54,184 nucleotides of DNA from Minisyncoccia bacterium (GCA_049699995.1 JBNAWD010000038.1:1-54184), one strand, 5' to 3'; positions 4,596-54,184 are shown, counted from the stretch's first letter. The notes: generated from the sequence alone by a model not told the origin. Program-made: numbers and translations.

Positions 4596-5168
4596 TTAAA
4601 TTAAATCTTGAGGGAGAATTTCTTTTAAAAGCCTTAGGGCTCGAAAATGCCAAGATTTAACTGTATTTAATGGTTTTTGAAAAATTTCGGAAATTTCTTG
4701 AAAAGTTAAATGGTCATTATAGCGGAGAAATAAAACCATTTGATAATTTAAAGGTAATTTTTTTAACGCCTCCTCTAAAATTTTTTGATTAAAATCTTGA
4801 TTGACTATTTCTTCTAATGAAAGACTTTTTGAAATTATTTTTTCTTCATAGACCTCTTTATCCTCAGAAAAAGAGTTTATAAAAGAAAAGGGAGTTTCTT
4901 TTTTCTTCTTAAAGAAATCAATAACAGTATTTTTGGCAATAGTGAAAAGCCAGGTTTTAAAATTCTTCTTTCGATTAAATTTTCTTAAATTTTTCCAAGC
5001 TTTAATAAAAGTTTCCTCAGTTAAATCCTCTGTCTCGGCAGAACCATTAGTTAAGCGATAAATAAAATTATAAACCGGCTTTAAATAGCGCGAAACCAAT
5101 ATTTCTAAAGCCTCTTCCTTGTCTTGAAAATATAAACTTATTAGCTCTTCATCTTTCAGATTTTCCAT
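4596..5168 (-). CDS. ECF-type sigma-70 family RNA polymerase sigma factor
   Basis: It has a region 2 pattern (EDLTEETFIKAWKNLRKF...TWLFTIAKNTVIDFF) and a region 4 helix-turn-helix (LTFQEISEIFQKPLNTVKSWHFRALRLLKE). Confidence 0.85.
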   Translation of the reverse strand: MENLKDEELISLYFQDKEEALEILVSRYLKPVYNFIYRLTNGSAETEDLTEETFIKAWKNLRKFNRKKNFKTWLFTIAKNTVIDFFKKKKETPFSFINSFSEDKEVYEEKIISKSLSLEEIVNQDFNQKILEEALKKLPLNYQMVLFLRYNDHLTFQEISEIFQKPLNTVKSWHFRALRLLKEILPQDLI

Positions 5169-5209
5169 AAATAGCTTTTAATTATATCAAAAAAGATTGA
5201 ACAAAACAA

Positions 5210-5239
5210 TTGACTTTTATTAGAAAAAAATTCTAAAAT
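5210..5239 (+). promoter_or_regulatory. Candidate sigma-70 promoter for ackA (TTGACT-18-TAAAAT)
   Basis: TTGACT lies at 5210-5215 and TAAAAT at 5234-5239, 24 nt upstream of the ackA ATG. Confidence 0.3.
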
Positions 5240-5263
5240 AAAGAGAGAAATTAAAAATATAAT

Positions 5264-6382
5264 ATGAACACTCCCTTAATTTTAGTTTTAAACTCCGGCT
5301 CCTCTTCTTTAAAATATTCTCTTTTTAAAAATGGAGAAAAAATTTTCGATGGACTGAAAGAAAACATTGGATTAAAAACTGGCGAAAAAAATCATCAAAT
5401 TGCTTTAGAGAAAACCTTTAAAGAAATCCAAGAAAAAGGAATAGTGAAAAGCCTAAAAGAGATTAAATACATCGGTCATCGAGTAGTCCATGGAGGAGAA
5501 ATTTTTAAAAAAACTACCCTTATTAATAGTAAGAATTTAGAAAAATTAAAAAGTATTTCTTTTTTGGCTCCGTTACATAATCCTTTTAATGTTCTAGGAA
5601 TAGAATTTTGTTTGAAAAATTTACCTTGGGCAAAAAATTATGCTGTTTTTGATACCGAATTTTATTCCTCTTTAAAAGAAGAGGCTTATTTATATGCTCT
5701 TCCTGATGAGTTTTATCGGAAATATAAGATTAGAAGATATGGTTTTCATGGAATTTCCCACAATTATGTATCATTGATGGCAGAAAAAATTTTAAAAAAG
5801 AAAATAAAAAAATTAATTACTTGCCATTTGGGAGCGGGAAGTTCAATCACAGCCATTTTAAATGGTCAGCCGATTGATACTTCGATGGGTTTTACTCCTT
5901 TGGAAGGATTAATTATGGAAACTCGTTGCGGAAATATTGATCCTTCTATTCCCCTTTATTTAATTTCTAACTATAATTTTAAAGCGGAAGAATTGGACAA
6001 AATCTTAAACAAACAATCAGGGTTTATCGGAATTTGTGGCTTAAGAGATTTTCGAGAAATTTTAAAAATGGAAACAGAAAAAGCAAAATTGTGTTATCAA
6101 ATGTATTTAAGAAGCGTAGTAAAATATATTGGAGCTTATATTAGTCTTTTAAATGGCGTTGAAGCTATTGTTTTTACTGCCGGGATTGGCGAGGGTTCGG
6201 CAAAATTCAGGGAAGATGTTTTAAAGCATTTTCAATATTTAGGGATTAAAATTGATAAAAAGAAAAATTATGGCCAAAAAAATATAATTTCCAAAAAAGA
6301 TTCAAAAGTAAAGGTATTGGTTATTCATACCGATGAAGCCTTGATGGTTTGCCAAAAAATTTTAAACCTCATTAAAAAATAA
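5264..6382 (+). CDS. ackA: Acetate kinase
   Basis: The motifs are LVLNSGSSSLKYSLF, GHRVVHGG, YGFHGISH and FTAGIGE. Confidence 0.95.
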   Translation: MNTPLILVLNSGSSSLKYSLFKNGEKIFDGLKENIGLKTGEKNHQIALEKTFKEIQEKGIVKSLKEIKYIGHRVVHGGEIFKKTTLINSKNLEKLKSISFLAPLHNPFNVLGIEFCLKNLPWAKNYAVFDTEFYSSLKEEAYLYALPDEFYRKYKIRRYGFHGISHNYVSLMAEKILKKKIKKLITCHLGAGSSITAILNGQPIDTSMGFTPLEGLIMETRCGNIDPSIPLYLISNYNFKAEELDKILNKQSGFIGICGLRDFREILKMETEKAKLCYQMYLRSVVKYIGAYISLLNGVEAIVFTAGIGEGSAKFREDVLKHFQYLGIKIDKKKNYGQKNIISKKDSKVKVLVIHTDEALMVCQKILNLIKK

Positions 6383-14194: not shown

Positions 14195-17166
14195 TCAATT
14201 TTTTTTAAACTAATTTTTGCTTTATAGGATTCAATTTGAACTTCCTTGAAAACAGAAGAAATTTCTTTGTCAAAAAGAATATCTTCTAAGAAACACTCTT
14301 TCATTAAATATTCTTTGTTTCTTTCCAATATCTCTTTTAAAGCGGAGTCGGCAATAACACCTAAAAAGATCTGGTCCCCCGGTTGCAATTTATTTTCTTG
14401 CCGGAAAGATTGAACCCTTCTTTTAAATTCCTTTAAAATCCCCTCTTCTTTCAATGATTCGTCGATTTCGAAATCAAAGGTTAATTCTTCCTGAATTTGG
14501 GGATCAAATCTTATTTCTTTGACATTAACTTCTTCTTTCAAAATTTCTAAATATTCTTTTTCTTCTTTCAAGCTTTGATTTTTTAAAATCAAAGCTCTGA
14601 GTGGCTGACGGACTTTGATTTTCTTTTCCTGCCTTAAAGCAAGAGCTAAACTCGCTAGATTTTTTATTTCCTCCATTTTTTTAATAATTTCCTGATTGAA
14701 ATATTCTTCTTCAACTAAAGGCCAATTTTCTAAATGGACACTTAACTTATTTTCTTCATTTCTTGCTTTCTGATATATAAATTCGGCAAAAAATGGACAA
14801 AAAGGAGCAAAAAGTATGGCGGTTTGGAAAATAACTTTTCTTAAAACTAACGATGAATTTTCCCATTTTTCTCTATCGTCTTTTTTTTGAAAAATATTTC
14901 GAGAACGTCTTAAATACCATCGGCTGATATTATCAATCAAATCATCCAAAATCCTTGTTGCCTCATTAACCTTATAATTATCCAATAAATAAGTTATTTC
15001 TTTTTTTGCCTTTTCTAAATAAGAAAGCATCCATAAATCCATTAAAGAAAGCTCTTCTCTTTTGATTTCTTTTTTCTCTTTGAATCCATAAAGTTGATAA
15101 AAAATTAAGACATTATAAAAAGTGTTAAAGATCCTATTGCGAAAATTTACTAAATCTTTTTCTGAAAATTTTTTATTTTCCGCTGAAGAATTAATAGCAT
15201 AAAAATACCACCTTAAGATATCTGATCCATATTTTTGAAATATCTCCTGTGGGACAACAACATTTCCTTTTGATTTTGACATTTTTTCTCCTTTCTCATC
15301 TAAAACTAATCCAACTACAATAACATTTTTATAAGCCGGTCCTAAACCTAATAAAGTGGAAATGGCAAGCAGGGTATAAAACCAACCCCGAGTTTGATCA
15401 ATTCCTTCGCAGATAAAATCAGCGGGGAAAGGAATCTTTTTAATTAATTCTTTTTCATCTTTTTCCTCCCAATCTTCTTCAGAAAATTGATCAAAAGGCC
15501 AATGCCAGGAAGCATAAGGCATTGAACCTGAATCAAACCAGCAATCCAAAACTTCTTCTTCTCTTTCCATTTCCGAATGGCATTTTTCACAAATCAATTT
15601 AATCCTATCAATATAAGGCCGATGAAGGTCTATTTCTCCTTTTTCATTTTTTAATAAATCTAAATTTCCTCCTTTTTCTTTCAGCTCTTTTAAAGAACCG
15701 ATAACTTCAATCTGGCCGCATTTTAAACATTTCCAAATAGAAAGAGGTGTCCCCCAATAACGGTTGCGAGAAAGAGCCCAGTCTTTTAAATCATTCAGCC
15801 ATTGCCCAAAACGACCGTTTTTAATATGGTCGGGTTCCCAGTTTATTTCTTGATTATTTTTTATTATCTCTTCTTTTAAAGAACTCATTTTAATAAACCA
15901 AGTCTTTTTGGCATAATAAATCAACGGAGAATGACACCGCCAACAAAAAGGATATTCATGAGTAGTTCCTTTTAAATCTCCTTTAAAAAGCAAACCTCTT
16001 TTTTCTAAATCTTTGAAAATAACTGGATCTAATTCTTTAAAGAAAAGGCCTTTAAATTCTTTTAAAGATTTCGGTTCGCCAGTAAAACAACCATTTTCAT
16101 CCATATTTAATAAAATTGGCAAATTTTCTTTTTTCCCTACCCCCAAATCTTCTTCACCAAAAGCAGGAGCTATATGAACTAATCCTGTCCCCTCTTCCGT
16201 GGAAACAAAATCTCCCTTTATCACTTCATAAATTTTTTTATTATTGATATCTTCCCATAAATACAAGGGAGAATATTTTTCCCCAATCAATTCTTCTCCT
16301 TTAATTTCTTCAATTATTTCAAAACCAGATGTCTCGGGAAAACGATAAGAAATAAGAATATCATTATCTTTTAAAACTAATTGATAATCTAAATCCTCTT
16401 TAATCGCAACAGCAGTATTAGCGGGTAAAGTCCAAGGGGTGGTAGTCCAAACCAAAAGAAAAATTTTCCCTTGATATTTATTTTTTAAATTAATCAATTT
16501 TTCATTTTTTGGTTGAGGAATTTCAAATTTTATATAAATAGAGGGGTCTTGTACCGTTTCATAACCTAAAGCCAATTCATGAGAAGATAAAGGAGTTCCG
16601 CAACGAGGGCAATAAGGCACTACCCGATAATCTTGATAAAGCAAACCTCTTTTATAAATTCTTTTAATAAGCCAAAAAATTGTTTCAATATAATTATTGT
16701 CGCAGGTAATATAAGGATTTTCTAAATCTATCCAATAAGCCATTCTTTTAGTAAATTGTTCCCACTCATTTTTATACCGCCACACAGATTCTTTTGCCTT
16801 TTGATTAAATTTCTCAATACCATATTTTTCAATTTCTGGTTTGTTTTTTAAACCTAGTTCTTTTTCTATCTGAATTTCAACTGGCAAACCATGAGTATCC
16901 CAGCCTGCTCTTCTTAAAACAAAAAATCCTCTCATTGTCTTATATCGACAAACCAAATCTTTATAAGCGCGAGCCAAAAAATGATGAATACCTGGTCGAC
17001 CATTGGCGGTGGGTGGTCCCTCAAAGAAAGTAAACTCTTTCTGACCTTTTGTTTGTTGAAGGCTCTGTTGAAAAATATTATTCTTTTCCCAAAAAGATAA
17101 AATCTCTTCTTCTTTTAGAGAAATTTCTTCTAAATAATTTTCTTTTTGCATATTTTCTTTTGACAT
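14191..17166 (-). CDS. ileS: Isoleucine--tRNA ligase
   Basis: It has the HIGH region PPTANGRPGIHH, KMSKSKGN and an editing-domain insert. It is 991 aa long. Confidence 0.97.
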   Translation of the reverse strand: MSKENMQKENYLEEISLKEEEILSFWEKNNIFQQSLQQTKGQKEFTFFEGPPTANGRPGIHHFLARAYKDLVCRYKTMRGFFVLRRAGWDTHGLPVEIQIEKELGLKNKPEIEKYGIEKFNQKAKESVWRYKNEWEQFTKRMAYWIDLENPYITCDNNYIETIFWLIKRIYKRGLLYQDYRVVPYCPRCGTPLSSHELALGYETVQDPSIYIKFEIPQPKNEKLINLKNKYQGKIFLLVWTTTPWTLPANTAVAIKEDLDYQLVLKDNDILISYRFPETSGFEIIEEIKGEELIGEKYSPLYLWEDINNKKIYEVIKGDFVSTEEGTGLVHIAPAFGEEDLGVGKKENLPILLNMDENGCFTGEPKSLKEFKGLFFKELDPVIFKDLEKRGLLFKGDLKGTTHEYPFCWRCHSPLIYYAKKTWFIKMSSLKEEIIKNNQEINWEPDHIKNGRFGQWLNDLKDWALSRNRYWGTPLSIWKCLKCGQIEVIGSLKELKEKGGNLDLLKNEKGEIDLHRPYIDRIKLICEKCHSEMEREEEVLDCWFDSGSMPYASWHWPFDQFSEEDWEEKDEKELIKKIPFPADFICEGIDQTRGWFYTLLAISTLLGLGPAYKNVIVVGLVLDEKGEKMSKSKGNVVVPQEIFQKYGSDILRWYFYAINSSAENKKFSEKDLVNFRNRIFNTFYNVLIFYQLYGFKEKKEIKREELSLMDLWMLSYLEKAKKEITYLLDNYKVNEATRILDDLIDNISRWYLRRSRNIFQKKDDREKWENSSLVLRKVIFQTAILFAPFCPFFAEFIYQKARNEENKLSVHLENWPLVEEEYFNQEIIKKMEEIKNLASLALALRQEKKIKVRQPLRALILKNQSLKEEKEYLEILKEEVNVKEIRFDPQIQEELTFDFEIDESLKEEGILKEFKRRVQSFRQENKLQPGDQIFLGVIADSALKEILERNKEYLMKECFLEDILFDKEISSVFKEVQIESYKAKISLKKIE

Positions 17167-22117: not shown

Positions 22118-24010
22118 TTACTGACCAGTAAAGTAAGTCTGGCCAGTCTTCAAGGTATCAATACCCCAAGTCTGGCTAACAGCACCAGTGGAAGTAGCGG
22201 AAGTGTTCCAGCCAATAGAAGCTAATCTAACTTCATAGTATCCGGCATCGCTAGAGCCAGTTAATTTGAAGGTAGCATTAAATTCACAAGTAGCAGTGGA
22301 ACCAGAAGTAATTCTCCAGAACTTATTAGTGCTATCTTCAGTGGCATTAGAACAAGTCCAAGAGGCAGAAGAAGTAGAGGGAGTAACCGAGCTTCCATTC
22401 TTGTAGATGGCCTTTGTTATAGAGGTAGTAGAATTGTCGCTGGTAGGAATATAGATATCGCCACCATTAGCAGTTACAGTAAAGACAATCTTAGCAGTAC
22501 CTAAATCAGCAACAGTGGAAGAGGTAGAACCAGAAGCGGTCAAACTAGCATTGCTTAAGGCAAAGACTGGAGCCTTTAAGAATGGATAGAATCTTTCACT
22601 ATCAAGAGAAGTGCCGTCAGCAGTCTTGACATTGCTGTTGGTATCAATACCAGTCAAAGAAGGACCAGTGGTAGAAATTACAACATATTTGGTAGAGCCA
22701 CCAGCAAAGCTTGAACTCTGGGCAGCAATATTGACTTTAATTGACAAAGTCTTAGTTGTTCCAGCGGCAACCGGTAAGCTGAAGTTAGACCAAGAAACAG
22801 AACCATCATTACCAGACCAACTGGGAGCAGCAGAAGCTAACAAAGTTGATCCATCCCAAAGCTCAGCTGAGATAACATCCGAAGTAGCAAGACCAACGCC
22901 TTTAGTAATGGTCACACTACCAGAACTAAAGGTGACATCTAAATCTTTTACTTCGACATTGAATCTCATTATCTCTACTCTGGTAGCGCCAGAAGTGGAG
23001 ACAATAATATTTTGAGCTTTTGGATTATCAGTGGCGAGGCTGACATTAACATCCGCGCTAAGGGTAGTAGTAATCGTCAAACCAGTGCGAGAAACATCAC
23101 TACCACTGGCAACAGAGTAATTAATGCCAGCAGTATCAGTAAAGACTAATTGATCATACTCAATAGTAGCTCCCCAGGTATCATCTTGAACATCAGATAC
23201 TGGATTAGTCACTACAGTACCTTTAACAGTCAAAACTTTAGTGGAGTTATTAGGAACTACCCAGTTCAAACCAGTGAAATTAAAGGTGTAATTGTCGGCA
23301 AAAGTATTCTCAATGGCATTGGCGGAAGAAGGGACAATCTCAGCTAACAAGTTAGAGCCATCATAAAGAGAAAGTTTGCTGAAAGCGCCCCAAGGAAAAG
23401 CATCAGCCGCAGTGTGGTCAATAGTGACAGCTATCTTTTTAACAGTAATGTCTGAACCAGTGGCTTTAAACTGAGCAGCCACTAATTCATAAGTTTGACC
23501 ACCATATAAAGTGGTTTGAGCGTTAGAAACTGGATAGCTTGTAATGGATAAAGTTCCATAAGCAGGAGCAACAACTGTCGTGGTGGTAGTACCGGCACTG
23601 GTAGTCGTGGTAGTAACAGGAGTGCAGTAAAGTTCATTTAATTTGGCTCTAGTCAAAGGACCAACATAACCAGTCTGAGGAATACCATATTGCGCCTGGA
23701 ATCTTTGAACAGCAGCCTTGGTCAAAGGACCAAAATAGCCGCTAGTAGGAGTGACTCCTAAGATAATCTGTAGGTTTTTGACATCATTAGAAGTCAAGCC
23801 ATAGTAAAGATCCGTATTGAAGCAATAGGTTCCAGTGGTCTGTTGGCCTCCTTGTAAAGCGGCAATCTGTTGTTGTAATTGGGCAATAATACCCAATAAC
23901 TGTTGAATTTGAGCTTGAAGCTCTTGAACAGATTGGCCAAAAACCGGAGAAACTGCCATTGAAAGGGCAAAAATCCCGGTTAAAATTGAAGCTGTTAATT
24001 TCTTTCCCAT
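22118..24010 (-). CDS. Secreted S/T/A/G-rich surface protein with N-terminal coiled coil + peptidoglycan-binding domain (S-layer-like candidate)
   Basis: It has a signal peptide (LTASILTGIFALSMAVSPVFG), a coiled coil (QELQAQIQQLLGIIAQLQQQIAALQ) and PG_binding_1-like repeats (SGYFGPLTKAAVQRFQ...TGYVGPLTRAKL). A Thr-rich linker and about 480 aa of beta-rich, low-charge sequence follow. Confidence 0.75.
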   Translation of the reverse strand: MGKKLTASILTGIFALSMAVSPVFGQSVQELQAQIQQLLGIIAQLQQQIAALQGGQQTTGTYCFNTDLYYGLTSNDVKNLQIILGVTPTSGYFGPLTKAAVQRFQAQYGIPQTGYVGPLTRAKLNELYCTPVTTTTTSAGTTTTTVVAPAYGTLSITSYPVSNAQTTLYGGQTYELVAAQFKATGSDITVKKIAVTIDHTAADAFPWGAFSKLSLYDGSNLLAEIVPSSANAIENTFADNYTFNFTGLNWVVPNNSTKVLTVKGTVVTNPVSDVQDDTWGATIEYDQLVFTDTAGINYSVASGSDVSRTGLTITTTLSADVNVSLATDNPKAQNIIVSTSGATRVEIMRFNVEVKDLDVTFSSGSVTITKGVGLATSDVISAELWDGSTLLASAAPSWSGNDGSVSWSNFSLPVAAGTTKTLSIKVNIAAQSSSFAGGSTKYVVISTTGPSLTGIDTNSNVKTADGTSLDSERFYPFLKAPVFALSNASLTASGSTSSTVADLGTAKIVFTVTANGGDIYIPTSDNSTTSITKAIYKNGSSVTPSTSSASWTCSNATEDSTNKFWRITSGSTATCEFNATFKLTGSSDAGYYEVRLASIGWNTSATSTGAVSQTWGIDTLKTGQTYFTGQ

Positions 24011-52417: not shown

Positions 52418-52444
52418 TTAGCAGACCAAATGACCAGTTGCTAA
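52418..52444. promoter_or_regulatory. Degenerate CIRCE-like inverted repeat upstream of groES
   Basis: TTAGCAGAC-N9-AGTTGCTAA compares with the CIRCE consensus TTAGCACTC-N9-GAGTGCTAA. By my count 13 of 18 arm positions match, and the spacing and placement just after the -10 box are correct. Confidence 0.45.
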
Positions 52445-52450
52445 TTTAAA

Positions 52451-52478
52451 ATTTTACTAATTAAAAAAAATTTGTCAA
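52451..52478 (-). promoter_or_regulatory. Sigma-70-type promoter of groES-groEL (TTGACA-16-TAAAAT)
   Basis: On the minus strand, TTGACA lies at 52478-52473 and TAAAAT at 52456-52451. Confidence 0.6.
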
Positions 52479-52481
52479 GAG

Positions 52482-52518
52482 AAAAACAGGGGCGATCCGC
52501 TCAAACGGATCGCCCCTG
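52482..52518 (-). terminator. Strong GC-rich Rho-independent terminator after the acidic small ORF
   Basis: CAGGGGCGATCCG-CTCAAA-CGGATCGCCCCTG forms a 13-bp stem, followed on the minus strand by TTTTT. Confidence 0.85.
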
Positions 52519-52809: not shown

Positions 52810-52838
52810 TTGACAAAGTAAGTTTTATCTTTTATACT
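52810..52838 (+). promoter_or_regulatory. Sigma-70-type promoter (TTGACA-17-TATACT) driving a roughly 250-nt leader
   Basis: TTGACA lies at 52810-52815 and TATACT at 52833-52838. It is divergent from the acidic-ORF promoter, with 22 nt between the two -35 boxes. Confidence 0.55.
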
Positions 52839-52902
52839 TGTAATATGCTTTTAAAGCTCTTTTAAATTTTTTCTAATTTTCCATTATTACCCCTTTATTA
52901 AT

Positions 52903-52960
52903 CCCCTGCAAAAGCATTTTTCCTTCCGGACTTCCCTCCTTTCCTTTGCTTTTGCGGGGG
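52903..52960 (+). ncRNA. Structured leader element: 14-bp hairpin presenting a pyrimidine loop that copies the anti-Shine-Dalgarno sequence
   Basis: CCCCTGCAAAAGCA (52903-52916) pairs with TGCTTTTGCGGGGG (52947-52960) with one G-U wobble. The 30-nt loop TTTTTCCTTCCGGACTTCCCTCCTTTCCTT contains CCTCCTTT (52935-52942), the exact complement of AAAGGAGG at 52996-53003 and 53081-53088. Confidence 0.45.
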
Positions 52961-53098
52961 ATTGGATATAGATTTTAAAATTTATTTAAATTTTAAAAGG
53001 AGGTGAAAGTTTATTTTAATTTCACTTTAAATCCTTTTATTAGCTCTTTTAAAATTTAAAAATCAAAATTATTTCCAGCGAAAGGAGGAAAAATTATT

Positions 53099-53377
53099 AT
53101 GTGTGAGTGGCTAGCCAAAAAATGCTACTATTGTAAATTCTCGGAATATGAAAAAGATAGATTGAAGTCTCTTATTTATCTTTACAGGGATCAAGAAAGC
53201 AATAAACCAGTGGTATATTACAAGAAAATTTCAAACTTCGAACTTTGCAAAATCTTAAATTCCTTTCTTAGCAGAGATGACGGTAATCAGAAAGATTGTT
53301 TTCTTTTAGAAATATTGATGAACATTCTAGGGATCAAAAATTCCTTAGAATGTGTTCCAGTCCATAGAAAGATTTAG
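53099..53377 (+). CDS. 92-aa hypothetical protein with N-terminal C-x6-C-x2-C
   Basis: A strong SD (AAAGGAGG) ends 10 nt before the ATG, and the stop runs into a GC-rich terminator. I recognise no family. Confidence 0.6.
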   Translation: MCEWLAKKCYYCKFSEYEKDRLKSLIYLYRDQESNKPVVYYKKISNFELCKILNSFLSRDDGNQKDCFLLEILMNILGIKNSLECVPVHRKI

Positions 53378-53399
53378 GGGGCGAGGCGCCCCCTTTTTT
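53377..53399 (+). terminator. Rho-independent terminator (GGGGGCG-AGG-CGCCCCC-TTTTTT)
   Basis: A 7-bp GC stem overlaps the TAG stop and is followed by T6. Confidence 0.8.
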
Positions 53400-53401
53400 A
53401 T

Positions 53402-53430
53402 TTGATTTATTTTTTAAAATTTTGTATTAT
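53402..53430 (+). promoter_or_regulatory. Candidate promoter (TTGATT-17-TATTAT) for the thioredoxin-like gene
   Basis: TTGATT lies at 53402-53407 and TATTAT at 53425-53430, with TG immediately upstream of the -10 box. Confidence 0.4.
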
Positions 53431-53482
53431 AAAACAATTAAAAGGTCAAAAAAATAATTTCAAAAAATAAACTTTTAAAAAA

Positions 53483-54184
53483 ATGGCGAAAACAAAAAAC
53501 AGCAATAGCCAAAATTATCTTTTATATTTTATTGCAATCCTTTGTTTAGGATTTTTTATTTATTGGGGATTTAAAAACCCAAATAAATCTGTTCAACCTT
53601 CCCCTCAAACAGCTACCGTGAAACAAGCCTTAGAATTTATTGAAAAAAATTTAGTTGGCCAAAAAACTGAATTAAAACAAGTCAATGAGGAAAGCGGCGT
53701 TTATAAATTGATTTTAAAAATCCAAAACGAAGAAGCGCCGGTTTATTTATCAAAAGACGGGAAATTACTTTTCCTTCAATCAATTAACTTAGAAGAAACA
53801 AATAAGGAAATTTCCTCTCAAACATCGCCCAAGGTTTCAAAATGCGAAGATGTTAAAAAAGAAAATCAACCCGTATTAGAAGCTTTTATTGTAAGTCAAT
53901 GTCCTTTTGGACTTCAGATGCAAAGAATTTTAAATGAATTAAGAAAAAATATTCCTCAATTAGAACCTTATGTTATTGTTCGCTATATTGGAGAAATTAG
54001 AGATAATAAAATTACCTCTATGCATGGTGATGAAGAAGCCCAGGAGAATTTAAGACAAATTTGTATCCGAGAAGAACAAAAAGACAAATATTGGCCTTAT
54101 GTTGATTGCTACATTCAAGAAGGAAAAACAAAAGAATGCTTAAAATCAGCGCAAATTGATGAACATAAATTAAACGAATGTTTG
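53483..54184 (+). CDS. Membrane-anchored thioredoxin-fold/GILT-like thiol-disulfide protein (tentative), 3' end outside the window
   Basis: The frame from the ATG at 53483 is open to the window end (234 codons). It has a TM anchor (YLLYFIAILCLGFFIYW). The motif FIVSQCPFGLQ resembles the active-site region of DsbA/GILT-like proteins but has only one Cys of the CxxC pair. It is absent from the ORF track because no stop lies in the window. Confidence 0.4.
   Translation, partial: MAKTKNSNSQNYLLYFIAILCLGFFIYWGFKNPNKSVQPSPQTATVKQALEFIEKNLVGQKTELKQVNEESGVYKLILKIQNEEAPVYLSKDGKLLFLQSINLEETNKEISSQTSPKVSKCEDVKKENQPVLEAFIVSQCPFGLQMQRILNELRKNIPQLEPYVIVRYIGEIRDNKITSMHGDEEAQENLRQICIREEQKDKYWPYVDCYIQEGKTKECLKSAQIDEHKLNECL

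Follow-up and report, generated by a model that had tools for sequence, protein, structure and literature searches.

Leaders that occlude the Shine-Dalgarno (SD) sequence, such as the RNA thermometers ROSE and fourU and the expression platforms of translational riboswitches, lie in the sense-strand 5' UTR, carry pyrimidines complementary to their own SD and have a conserved structure, and the locus described here resembles them in these points. Here, however, the complementary tract sits in a 26-30 nt loop on a long, very stable stem, so that its pairing would be a pseudoknot and not a simple SD/anti-SD stem, and the complementary word drifts between strains. Unlike riboswitches, the element contains no recognisable ligand-binding aptamer, and it matches no Rfam family. 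In the mRNAs of type I toxins (e.g. Helicobacter pylori aapA1), upstream CU-rich sequences within a long structured leader sequester the strong SD of a small ORF, whereas the ORF found here is about 90 aa long and not hydrophobic, and no antisense RNA gene or promoter was identified. In RsaE/RoxS and the RNAIII hairpins, a stable stem carries unpaired C-rich nucleotides that can bind GGAGG, and these RNAs are independent transcripts with their own terminators that act in trans, whereas the present element is embedded in a leader and linked to one gene. In the rep leaders of IncI-alpha and IncB plasmids, a hairpin loop pairs beside the ribosome-binding site (RBS), and this pseudoknot, controlled by an antisense RNA, activates translation; a similar loop-to-RBS pairing is proposed here, with no relationship in sequence or genes. 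To our knowledge, gene regulation in ultra-small bacteria of the CPR/Patescibacteria type is little known, and hardly any regulatory RNAs specific to their lineages have been reported.

In B. subtilis, anti-SD-like (aSD-like) pyrimidine 8-mers pair with the RBS from any position in the mRNA, inhibiting initiation and making the transcript less stable, and aSD-like words are depleted from genes (PMC12697547). The locus shares with those elements a pyrimidine-rich tract distant from the RBS on the same mRNA, for which lower initiation and faster decay are expected. The B. subtilis elements were synthetic or, in natural genes, selected against (PMC12697547), whereas the tract studied here is positively maintained on a covarying stem, which implies use.

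Genomic setting and layout of the leader

The window, i.e. the whole stretch of 54,184 nucleotides that was analysed, is an entire contig (C38, 54 kb) of a MAG of 398 kb in 41 contigs, with 31% G+C and 68% completeness. The genomes of its relatives measure 0.4-0.7 Mb, so the organism is an ultra-small, CPR-like bacterium. The element is located in a 384-nt intergenic region between a divergent gene pair, a hyper-acidic ORF on one side and an orphan ORF on the other (Table 1). The groES and groEL genes lie directly past the hyper-acidic ORF. Beyond the terminator of the orphan ORF follows a gene for a membrane-anchored, DsbA/GILT-like protein (thioredoxin fold).

Table 1. Features of the leader and its flanking genes, in window coordinates
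Feature	Position	Strand	Remarks
Hyper-acidic ORF, 60 aa	52714-52532	-	left side of the intergenic region
Predicted sigma-70-type promoter, TTGACA-17-TATACT	52810..52838	+	11/12 consensus positions
5' box AGCTCTTTTAAATT, copy 1	52855..52868	+	invariant block in the alignment
C-rich 5' flank of the hairpin, CCATTATTACCCCTTTATT	52881..52899	+	pairs with the SD region in nested folds
Hairpin 5' arm AATCCCCTGCAAAAGCA	52900..52916	+	covaries with the relatives' arms
Loop TTTTTCCTTCCGGACTTCCCTCCTTTCCTT	52917..52946	+	30 nt, 27 pyrimidines; pyrimidine tract, central CCGGA, pyrimidine tract
Hairpin 3' arm TGCTTTTGCGGGGGATT	52947..52963	+	pairs with the 5' arm
3' box TTGGATATAGA	52962..52972	+	TTGATATAGA in all relatives
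Perfect AT palindrome TTTTAAAATTTA/TAAATTTTAAAA	52973..52998	+	pairing scan
AAAGGAGG site 1, orphan SD	52996..53003	+	32 nt past the hairpin
Window-specific extra segment	53004..53080	+	85-nt repeat period, 52996 to 53081; absent from all relatives
AAAGGAGG site 2, predicted working SD of the ORF	53081..53088	+	10 nt before the ATG
Orphan ORF, 92 aa	53099..53377	+	conserved cysteines C2, C9, C12, C50, C67; NFELCKILN motif
Intrinsic terminator of the 92-aa ORF	53376..53400	+	8-bp GC stem + T6; terminator scan

The near-consensus promoter given in a preliminary description of the region was present and was the top-scoring plus-strand promoter site there, with 260 nt between the end of its -10 box and the ATG at 53099 and a predicted transcription start near 52845, to which AGUUCUUUUAAA corresponds in the relatives. 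At the homologous position, four related leaders (L088, L089, L091, L092) carry TTGACA(A)-17-TAAAAT, and L146 has TTAACA. A second, weaker promoter-like site (9/12) was seen at 53026-53055, inside the window-specific insert.

The cassette has the same order in all homologues, namely promoter, 5' box, C-rich stretch, hairpin, 3' box, A-rich spacer, SD and ORF, and at its 3' end the ORF, its terminator and the DsbA/GILT-like gene. The 5' box has the general form AG(C/T)TCTTTTAAATT, and in the relatives (AGTTCTTTTAAATT) it starts about 7 nt past the -10 box, near +1. The C-rich flank reads CCAATCCCCCCTTCC or CCACATTCCCTTATAAT in the relatives, and the consensus of the 3' box across the lineages is TTG(G)ATATAGA. 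The relatives have a single SD (AAAGGAGGAAAG, then ATG) placed 18-33 nt past the hairpin, with the ATG 34-50 nt past it; in the window the distance from hairpin to ATG is 135 nt, with AU-rich structure between. The 3' half of the AT palindrome can form an alternative 15-bp helix with 53046-53060.

The hairpin and its unusual loop

The stem of 14 bp (52903-52916 pairing with 52947-52960) with one wobble (T52907.G52956) and the pyrimidine loop that had been described before were both recovered, and the stem is longer in full, comprising 17 bp (52900-52916 / 52947-52963) with one U.G, or 19 bp when two further U.G pairs are counted. The 76-nt hairpin folded at -30.8 kcal/mol, compared with -14.8 +/- 2.7 kcal/mol for shuffled sequences (z = -5.9, 0/200 shuffles). 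Among the 126 hairpins with stems of at least 11 bp in the 398-kb genome, it is the only one in which a stem of at least 17 bp carries a large pyrimidine loop; the remaining long-stem hairpins are tetraloop terminators or RAYT palindromes. The genome also contains a RAYT-type gene with flanking palindromes.

The hairpin is not an intrinsic terminator or attenuator: its loop has 30 nt where these have 3-8 nt, the sequence after the stem is GGATATAGA, or TTGATATAGAAAAAA in the relatives, and not a U-tract, and the terminator scan made no call at this place, which agrees with the preliminary description. Its remark that the leader is not a known riboswitch class was likewise borne out by covariance searches against Rfam 15, in which the whole window gave zero matches at the gathering score, and a scan of the region at E <= 10 gave chance-level matches only (idnO with 22.8 bits at a cut-off of 100, and mir-186 with 21 bits at a cut-off of 70).

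Homologues of the orphan ORF and distribution of the element

The 92-aa ORF had no match in Pfam, NCBIfam, PHROGs, PADLOC or PDB, no RNA-binding fold could be recognised in its product, and no exact records were found for this ORF or for the acidic protein of the window. An AlphaFold2 model built from four sequences reached a pLDDT of 51 and was too poor for use. Among 60 relatives, the protein search with the 92-aa sequence gave no match and the DNA search gave AT-rich low-complexity matches only; a word-based protein search also gave no match. Through a full HMMER scan of 1.84 billion representative proteins, one homologue was found (P0001, 89 aa, identical at 43% of positions along its full length), and a profile search, which gave three clusters, added P0002 and P0003. 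They are encoded on the contigs L087/L088, L089, L090, L091 and L092, and the sources of the homologue contigs are JGI 3300029977, 3300009503 and 3300043569, Ga0209809, and ENA ERZ27247226/-228/-713.

The relatives represent a sister lineage known from few metagenome contigs, with a GroES 93% identical to that of the window and an acidic ORF of 61 aa whose N-terminus is conserved. The DsbA/GILT-like protein is encoded at the same place downstream of the ORF and shows 64% identity between the window and the relatives. The small ORF itself evolves fast and retains its five cysteines and the NFELCKILN motif, and its terminator is kept in the relatives with an altered stem sequence. The gene call of 122 aa for P0002 is an over-extension into the leader. 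Between strains, indels and stop codons interrupt or shift every reading frame that crosses the hairpin, so the hairpin is non-coding, and an upstream ORF or an N-terminal extension running through it was ruled out.

We then considered how widely the element occurs. A model made from the single window sequence (R1) had its best matches inside coding regions among 300 genomes of the order, and the improved model (R2), run over 400 genomes of the order and the 26 other genomes of the family, added no member, its matches being unrelated hairpins or lying antisense to rplW. Around groES, gene order was not conserved across 20 family genomes, and no analogous hairpin was present there. A metagenome scan for a near-exact hairpin gave no match, and a scan of genome contigs for the relatives' 3' box gave four chance matches in unrelated phyla. 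The metagenome scan with a pattern of both boxes returned at least 120 matches, mostly chance; filtering with R2 picked one true new variant, L146, among the 80 loci listed. Since R2 found no member elsewhere in the order and family genomes searched, the element appears to be confined to two sister lineages. It is single-copy and is linked every time to the same orphan gene, in five sequence variants from the two lineages.

The hairpin is maintained on the mRNA strand

The relatives' hairpins have a stem of 16-18 bp and a loop of 26-28 nt, and their arms (CCTTACCCAGGGAAAAC / GTTTTTCCTGGGTAAGG or CCTTGCCAGGGGAAAC / GTTTTCCCTGGTAAGG) share almost no sequence with the window stem. With the window hairpin as its sole input, a covariance model retrieved them at E ~1e-7. 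The preliminary description had proposed covariation as a check on the stem, and when five distinct leaders were aligned with the model, each of the 18 stem pairs was kept (90/90 cells are standard pairs), with double-sided compensatory changes at 10 of the 18; this alignment is fitted to the model, the pair counts are not probabilities, and the sample of two deep lineages is equivalent to a single long branch with small changes added. Slid controls gave 0-2 such changes, and 0/500 shuffles reached the observed values. As a yardstick, compensated turnover between both lineages is likewise seen in the terminator of the adjacent acidic gene, indicating a divergence sufficient for the decay of an unselected stem. 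The position of the hairpin between promoter and SD/ATG is fixed in all lineages, on the sense strand of the downstream gene. The hairpin is an evolutionarily maintained structured leader element, backed by covariation.

A long uninterrupted stem kept by compensatory changes, with a conserved length of 16-19 bp, would also be expected of an RNA processing or stability element, i.e. a site of RNase III cleavage or a protection of the mRNA, in which the loop sequence is secondary. Such a role leaves unexplained why a loop of 26-30 nt is 90-93% pyrimidine across the lineages, and the hairpin, lying some 55 nt into the predicted transcript, is too far inside to protect the mRNA as a stem at its 5' terminus; we consider this explanation quite unlikely.

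Each lineage has one to three G.U pairs in the stem, which are C.A mismatches on the opposite strand, and in every lineage the hairpin folds at -25.4 to -28.8 kcal/mol on the plus strand and at -17.2 to -25.3 kcal/mol on the minus strand. The functional strand is the mRNA (plus) strand, as the G.U pairs fit no other. We nevertheless weighed a function of the minus strand, whose purine-rich loop AAGGAAAGGAGGGAAGUCCGGAAGGAAAAA could be a diverged tip of SRP RNA (GUCCGGAAGGAA) or a sponge for a GGA-motif protein. This strand folds too (-26.1 kcal/mol, z = -3.8), and 12 nt of its loop are identical to the 4.5S RNA tip of E. coli. Against this, the mismatches that replace the G.U pairs in every lineage cost 3-8 kcal/mol, the SRP RNA model RF00169 had no match even at E <= 10, and the GUCCGGAAGGAA motif is lost in the relatives. 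The 3' side of the loop has only 4-5 nt, too short for domain IV, and the equivalents of G48, G61 and C62 are changed. In addition, the family is without an Ffh M domain (SRP_SPB), and neither an SRP54-type GTPase nor an FtsY domain scored above the cut-off. An SRP RNA on the minus strand is effectively refuted by loop geometry, motif loss, mismatches and the Rfam and domain searches, and a minus-strand function of any of these kinds is barely conceivable.

The same wobble pairs bear on a role at the level of DNA, as a cruciform or operator, or an origin as a remnant of a mobile or REP-like element. The RAYT-type gene flanked by palindromes and the local duplications in the window leader would fit such an origin; however, the hairpin bears no likeness to the RAYT palindromes and occurs only once in the genome, G.U wobbles are tolerated and recurrent although they would be mismatches in DNA, and both lineages keep the hairpin at one fixed place with respect to promoter, SD and ORF. 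These observations make a DNA-level element highly improbable.

The pyrimidine loop and the ribosome-binding site

The loop contains the octamer CCTCCTTT (52935-52942), complementary to AAAGGAGG at 52996 and at 53081 just as had been noted before, and the complementarity between the loop and the second site covers 11 of 12 positions (52932-52943 against 53080-53091). In all five variants the loop has 26-30 nt, a pyrimidine content of 90-93% and the same design of 11-12 pyrimidines, (C)CGG(A), and 12-16 pyrimidines. The loop word is CCCUCCUUUCC in the window, CCCCUCCUUC in L088, CCUCUCCUUC in L146, CCCCCUUUUUC in L089 and L092, and CCCCCCUUUUUC in L091, so that CCUCC is retained in two of the five variants and CUCUCC or CCCCC(C) stands in the other three. 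The duplex between the loop and its own RBS comprises 5-9 contiguous complementary nt in every variant and has -11.9 to -16.5 kcal/mol, counting the helix alone. Compared with shuffled loops of matched composition it had no advantage, the fraction of shuffles at least as good being 0.11-0.88, and changes in the loop are unmatched around the SD; in L091 and L092, for example, the loop has U5 and the SD context A3 only. The drift of CCUCC, the shuffle null and the unmatched changes together indicate that the conserved trait is a displayed C/U tract, which is the generic complement of the long purine tract in the RBS, rather than the rRNA tail copied letter by letter. The earlier emphasis on the exact anti-SD octamer was therefore not upheld. 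The label of an anti-SD copy rests on the general bacterial consensus and the genome's own AAAGGAGG sites, since the 16S gene, and with it the 3' tail, is missing from the assembly (68% complete).

Within the coding sequences of the genome, CCTCC occurs 98 times on the sense strand and 291 times on the antisense strand, i.e. it is threefold rarer on the sense strand, and apart from the leader studied here, no mRNA leader of the genome carries a CCUCCU on its sense strand that lacks another explanation. Together with the B. subtilis data, this rarity lets us expect that an exposed pyrimidine tract under selection beside a strong SD acts on that SD. In nested folds of all five leaders, the C-rich flank pairs with the SD region and the probability that GGAGG is unpaired is 0.2-0.35. 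SD accessibility was not discriminating, the ORF ranking 3/18 among the genes with a perfect GGAGG followed by ATG.

The loop might instead be a platform for a protein or the ribosome, bound by the 30S subunit via S1 (as a standby site or enhancer) or by another protein such as the ORF product (autoregulation), in which case the likeness to the anti-SD would be a by-product of composition. The conservation of composition and not of the CCUCC word, and a loop:SD pairing that does not exceed the composition-matched null, agree with this. The hairpin of the relatives lies 18-33 nt upstream of the SD, a type of position at which U-rich enhancers and standby sites are typically found, and the two flanking conserved boxes could be extra protein contacts. 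On the other hand, no RNA-binding fold is recognisable in the ORF product, and two classical binders of pyrimidines drop out, since searches of six family genomes detected neither a cold-shock domain nor the RNA-binding domain of Rho. Moreover, pyrimidine-rich aSD-like tracts in B. subtilis repress and do not enhance (PMC12697547). On balance the platform is an unlikely reading. The domain searches also touch two narrower candidates: a binding site of a cold-shock protein is disfavoured in the same six genomes, and so is a Rho-dependent attenuator, as the C-rich loop could serve as a rut site but Rho_RNA_bind is absent in 6/6 family genomes, the window's own genome being 68% complete.

The preliminary description had also considered a separate small RNA. 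A trans-acting sRNA, or a leader processed into one, would bind the SDs of other mRNAs with its C-rich loop, as RsaE/RoxS and RNAIII do, or mimic the rRNA tail. sRNAs of the C-rich-loop design expose an unpaired C/U-rich loop on a very stable stem, which is what this hairpin does, and in the window it lies 135 nt from the ATG with AU-rich structure between. In the relatives, however, SD and ATG follow the hairpin directly, within 34-50 nt and with no intervening terminator, the element is single-copy and linked to the same ORF every time, and a CCUCC loop would bind every SD and thus have no specificity; a separate small RNA is very unlikely. A long shot is that the element is a stable, possibly processed mimic of the 16S rRNA tail that sponges SDs beyond its own gene and so tunes translation in an ultra-small bacterium from a family with no match to Rho, cold-shock-domain or SRP components, or the sensor of a new class of signal-responsive riboregulators for a cysteine-rich/DsbA-like redox cassette.

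Proposed mechanism

We tentatively favour a previously undescribed cis-acting leader element whose pyrimidine loop most likely occludes the purine-rich RBS and limits expression. The mRNA would start at the sigma-70 promoter; its leader folds into the hairpin of 16-19 bp, which holds out the nearly all-pyrimidine loop of 26-30 nt. An unusually long purine-rich RBS (AAAAAGGAGGAAAGAAAAA-AUG) is predicted a short distance downstream of the hairpin, and the exposed C/U loop may base-pair with this purine tract in a loop-to-SD pseudoknot, possibly assisted by nested pairing of the C-rich 5' flank with the same RBS region. Binding of the 30S subunit, and probably the stability of the mRNA too, would be limited in this way, so that the cysteine-rich protein of about 90 aa would be made at a low level or conditionally. 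Candidate relieving signals are temperature, the redox or metal state, and the gene's own product. Use of the promoter, pairing of the loop with the SD, repression rather than enhancement, and a possible relief by some signal are inferences.

Against simple occlusion speak the shuffle null and the drift of CCUCC, and the model leaves two conserved boxes, AGYTCTTTTAAATT and TTGRATATAGA, without an explanation. Of the cis-regulatory leader masking the SD that was suggested in the preliminary description, the structured, covarying leader on the sense strand is observed, and the masking is its most plausible mechanism. The RNA motif is new and most likely works by a known principle.

As a compact, covarying leader motif, it uses a rigid stem to present a pyrimidine tract beside a purine-rich RBS. 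If the loop occludes the SD, it would be a natural case in which selection retains an aSD-like sequence of the kind otherwise purged from bacterial mRNAs. The motif marks a conserved cassette of two genes, for a small cysteine-rich orphan and a membrane-anchored thioredoxin-fold protein, and tight control of this cassette may relate to envelope redox biology.

A duplicated SD and 5' box in the window leader

Two AAAGGAGG sites and a 12-mer present twice (AGCTCTTTTAAA, at 52855 and 53042) had been listed among the features of the element; both repeats exist, and the second copy of each is specific to this genome. The first AAAGGAGG site is followed by no convincing ORF, as described before: the one GTG nearby overlaps the SD itself, a frame begun at an ATT has 5 codons only, and intervening in-frame stops make the site unable to serve the 92-aa ORF. 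In L088 and L089, the SD lies 33 nt past the hairpin, the same spacing as that of site 1 in the window. Within the extra segment lie the second copy of the 5' box (53042-53055) and, ahead of it, a small hairpin (53003-53008 / 53020-53025). Judging from the repeat and the spacing, an insertion or duplication of ~85 nt specific to the window probably turned the SD at the ancestral position into a decoy and placed a second SD beside the ATG. The decoy may now compete for the loop (duplex energies of -14.4 vs -16.5 kcal/mol). The sole other copy of the 12-mer in the genome is located at 15683, inside a CDS of 991 aa.

Strain variation in the leader and divergence of its neighbours

The leader element was compared among close strains represented by four metagenome contigs of the sister lineage (L089, L091, L092 and L146). 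The variable spots were found in homopolymers, namely the C run of the loop (C5 or C6) and the A run of the spacer (A7 or A8), and the GTCAAAAAG repeat was present in one or two copies ahead of the SD. Because the homopolymer runs and the copy number of GTCAAAAAG vary between strains, the distance from the hairpin to the SD ranges from 18 to 33 nt.

In both lineages, the cysteine-rich small ORF adjoins a membrane-anchored DsbA/GILT-like gene (window 53099-54184; 5001-6213 of the sister-lineage contig L088). The small ORF diverges fastest between the lineages, with 43% identity, whereas the DsbA/GILT-like neighbour retains 64% and GroES 93%. On the other side of the leader, the terminator stem of the acidic 60-aa gene differs in sequence between the window and L088 (CAGGGGCGATCCG... 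and AAAAGCAACCCG..., respectively) with equal pairing, and this turnover provides a useful internal calibration of the divergence between the lineages. At the groES promoter region, TTGACA and the outer CIRCE-like arms (TTAGCAACT ... GGTCTGCTAA) are the same in the window and L088, while the centre and flanks differ. This pattern is consistent with a functional operator.

Coordinates of the structured and regulatory features
Feature	Location	Strand	Description
Terminator of the acidic 60-aa gene	window 52487-52518	minus	stem of 13-14 bp
groES promoter region	window 52418-52478		TTGACA promoter and CIRCE-like inverted repeat
Folded region (length about 160 nt) preceding a gene	G000 (the window's own genome) contig C1, about 23324-23509 (L225 225-410)	minus	24-bp closing stem and three internal hairpins
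Leader hairpin of a gene for a 180-aa membrane protein	L222 1501-1560 (G015, another genus of the family)	minus	14-bp stem, 18-nt loop

Searches for SRP components, Rho and cold-shock domains

SRP components were searched for in G000 and 11 relatives (G001, G002, G003, G011, G012, G017, G045, G189, G196, G237 and G302), several of the set being 95-100% complete. Neither the SRP RNA (RF00169, E <= 10) nor the Ffh M domain (PF02978) was found in these 12 genomes, and PF00448, the SRP54-type GTPase domain that Ffh and FtsY share, matched at E <= 1e-3 only once, to a P-loop fragment of G000 that scored 17.7 bits, below the cut-off of 22.7. As a positive control, the three models were run on 14 control genomes, and each was detected in 13-14 of them. 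The whole SRP pathway may be absent from the family, or it may be present with strongly diverged components. The Rho RNA-binding domain (PF07497) and the cold-shock domain (PF00313) were each found in none of six family genomes (G000, G001, G002, G003, G012 and G017).

Other structured RNA candidates outside the window

The folded region on contig C1 has a predicted energy of -61.3 kcal/mol (z = -8.2) and no Rfam match at E <= 0.01; it is a candidate for either an inverted-repeat element or a structured RNA of unknown type. The L222 hairpin is unrelated in sequence to the pyrimidine-loop leader element of the window. Eleven nucleotides of its loop (UUUACCCCACCGUUUUUU) are perfectly complementary to AAAACGGUGGG, a site that precedes the hairpin by about 15 nt, and this complementarity could allow a pseudoknot or an alternative fold.
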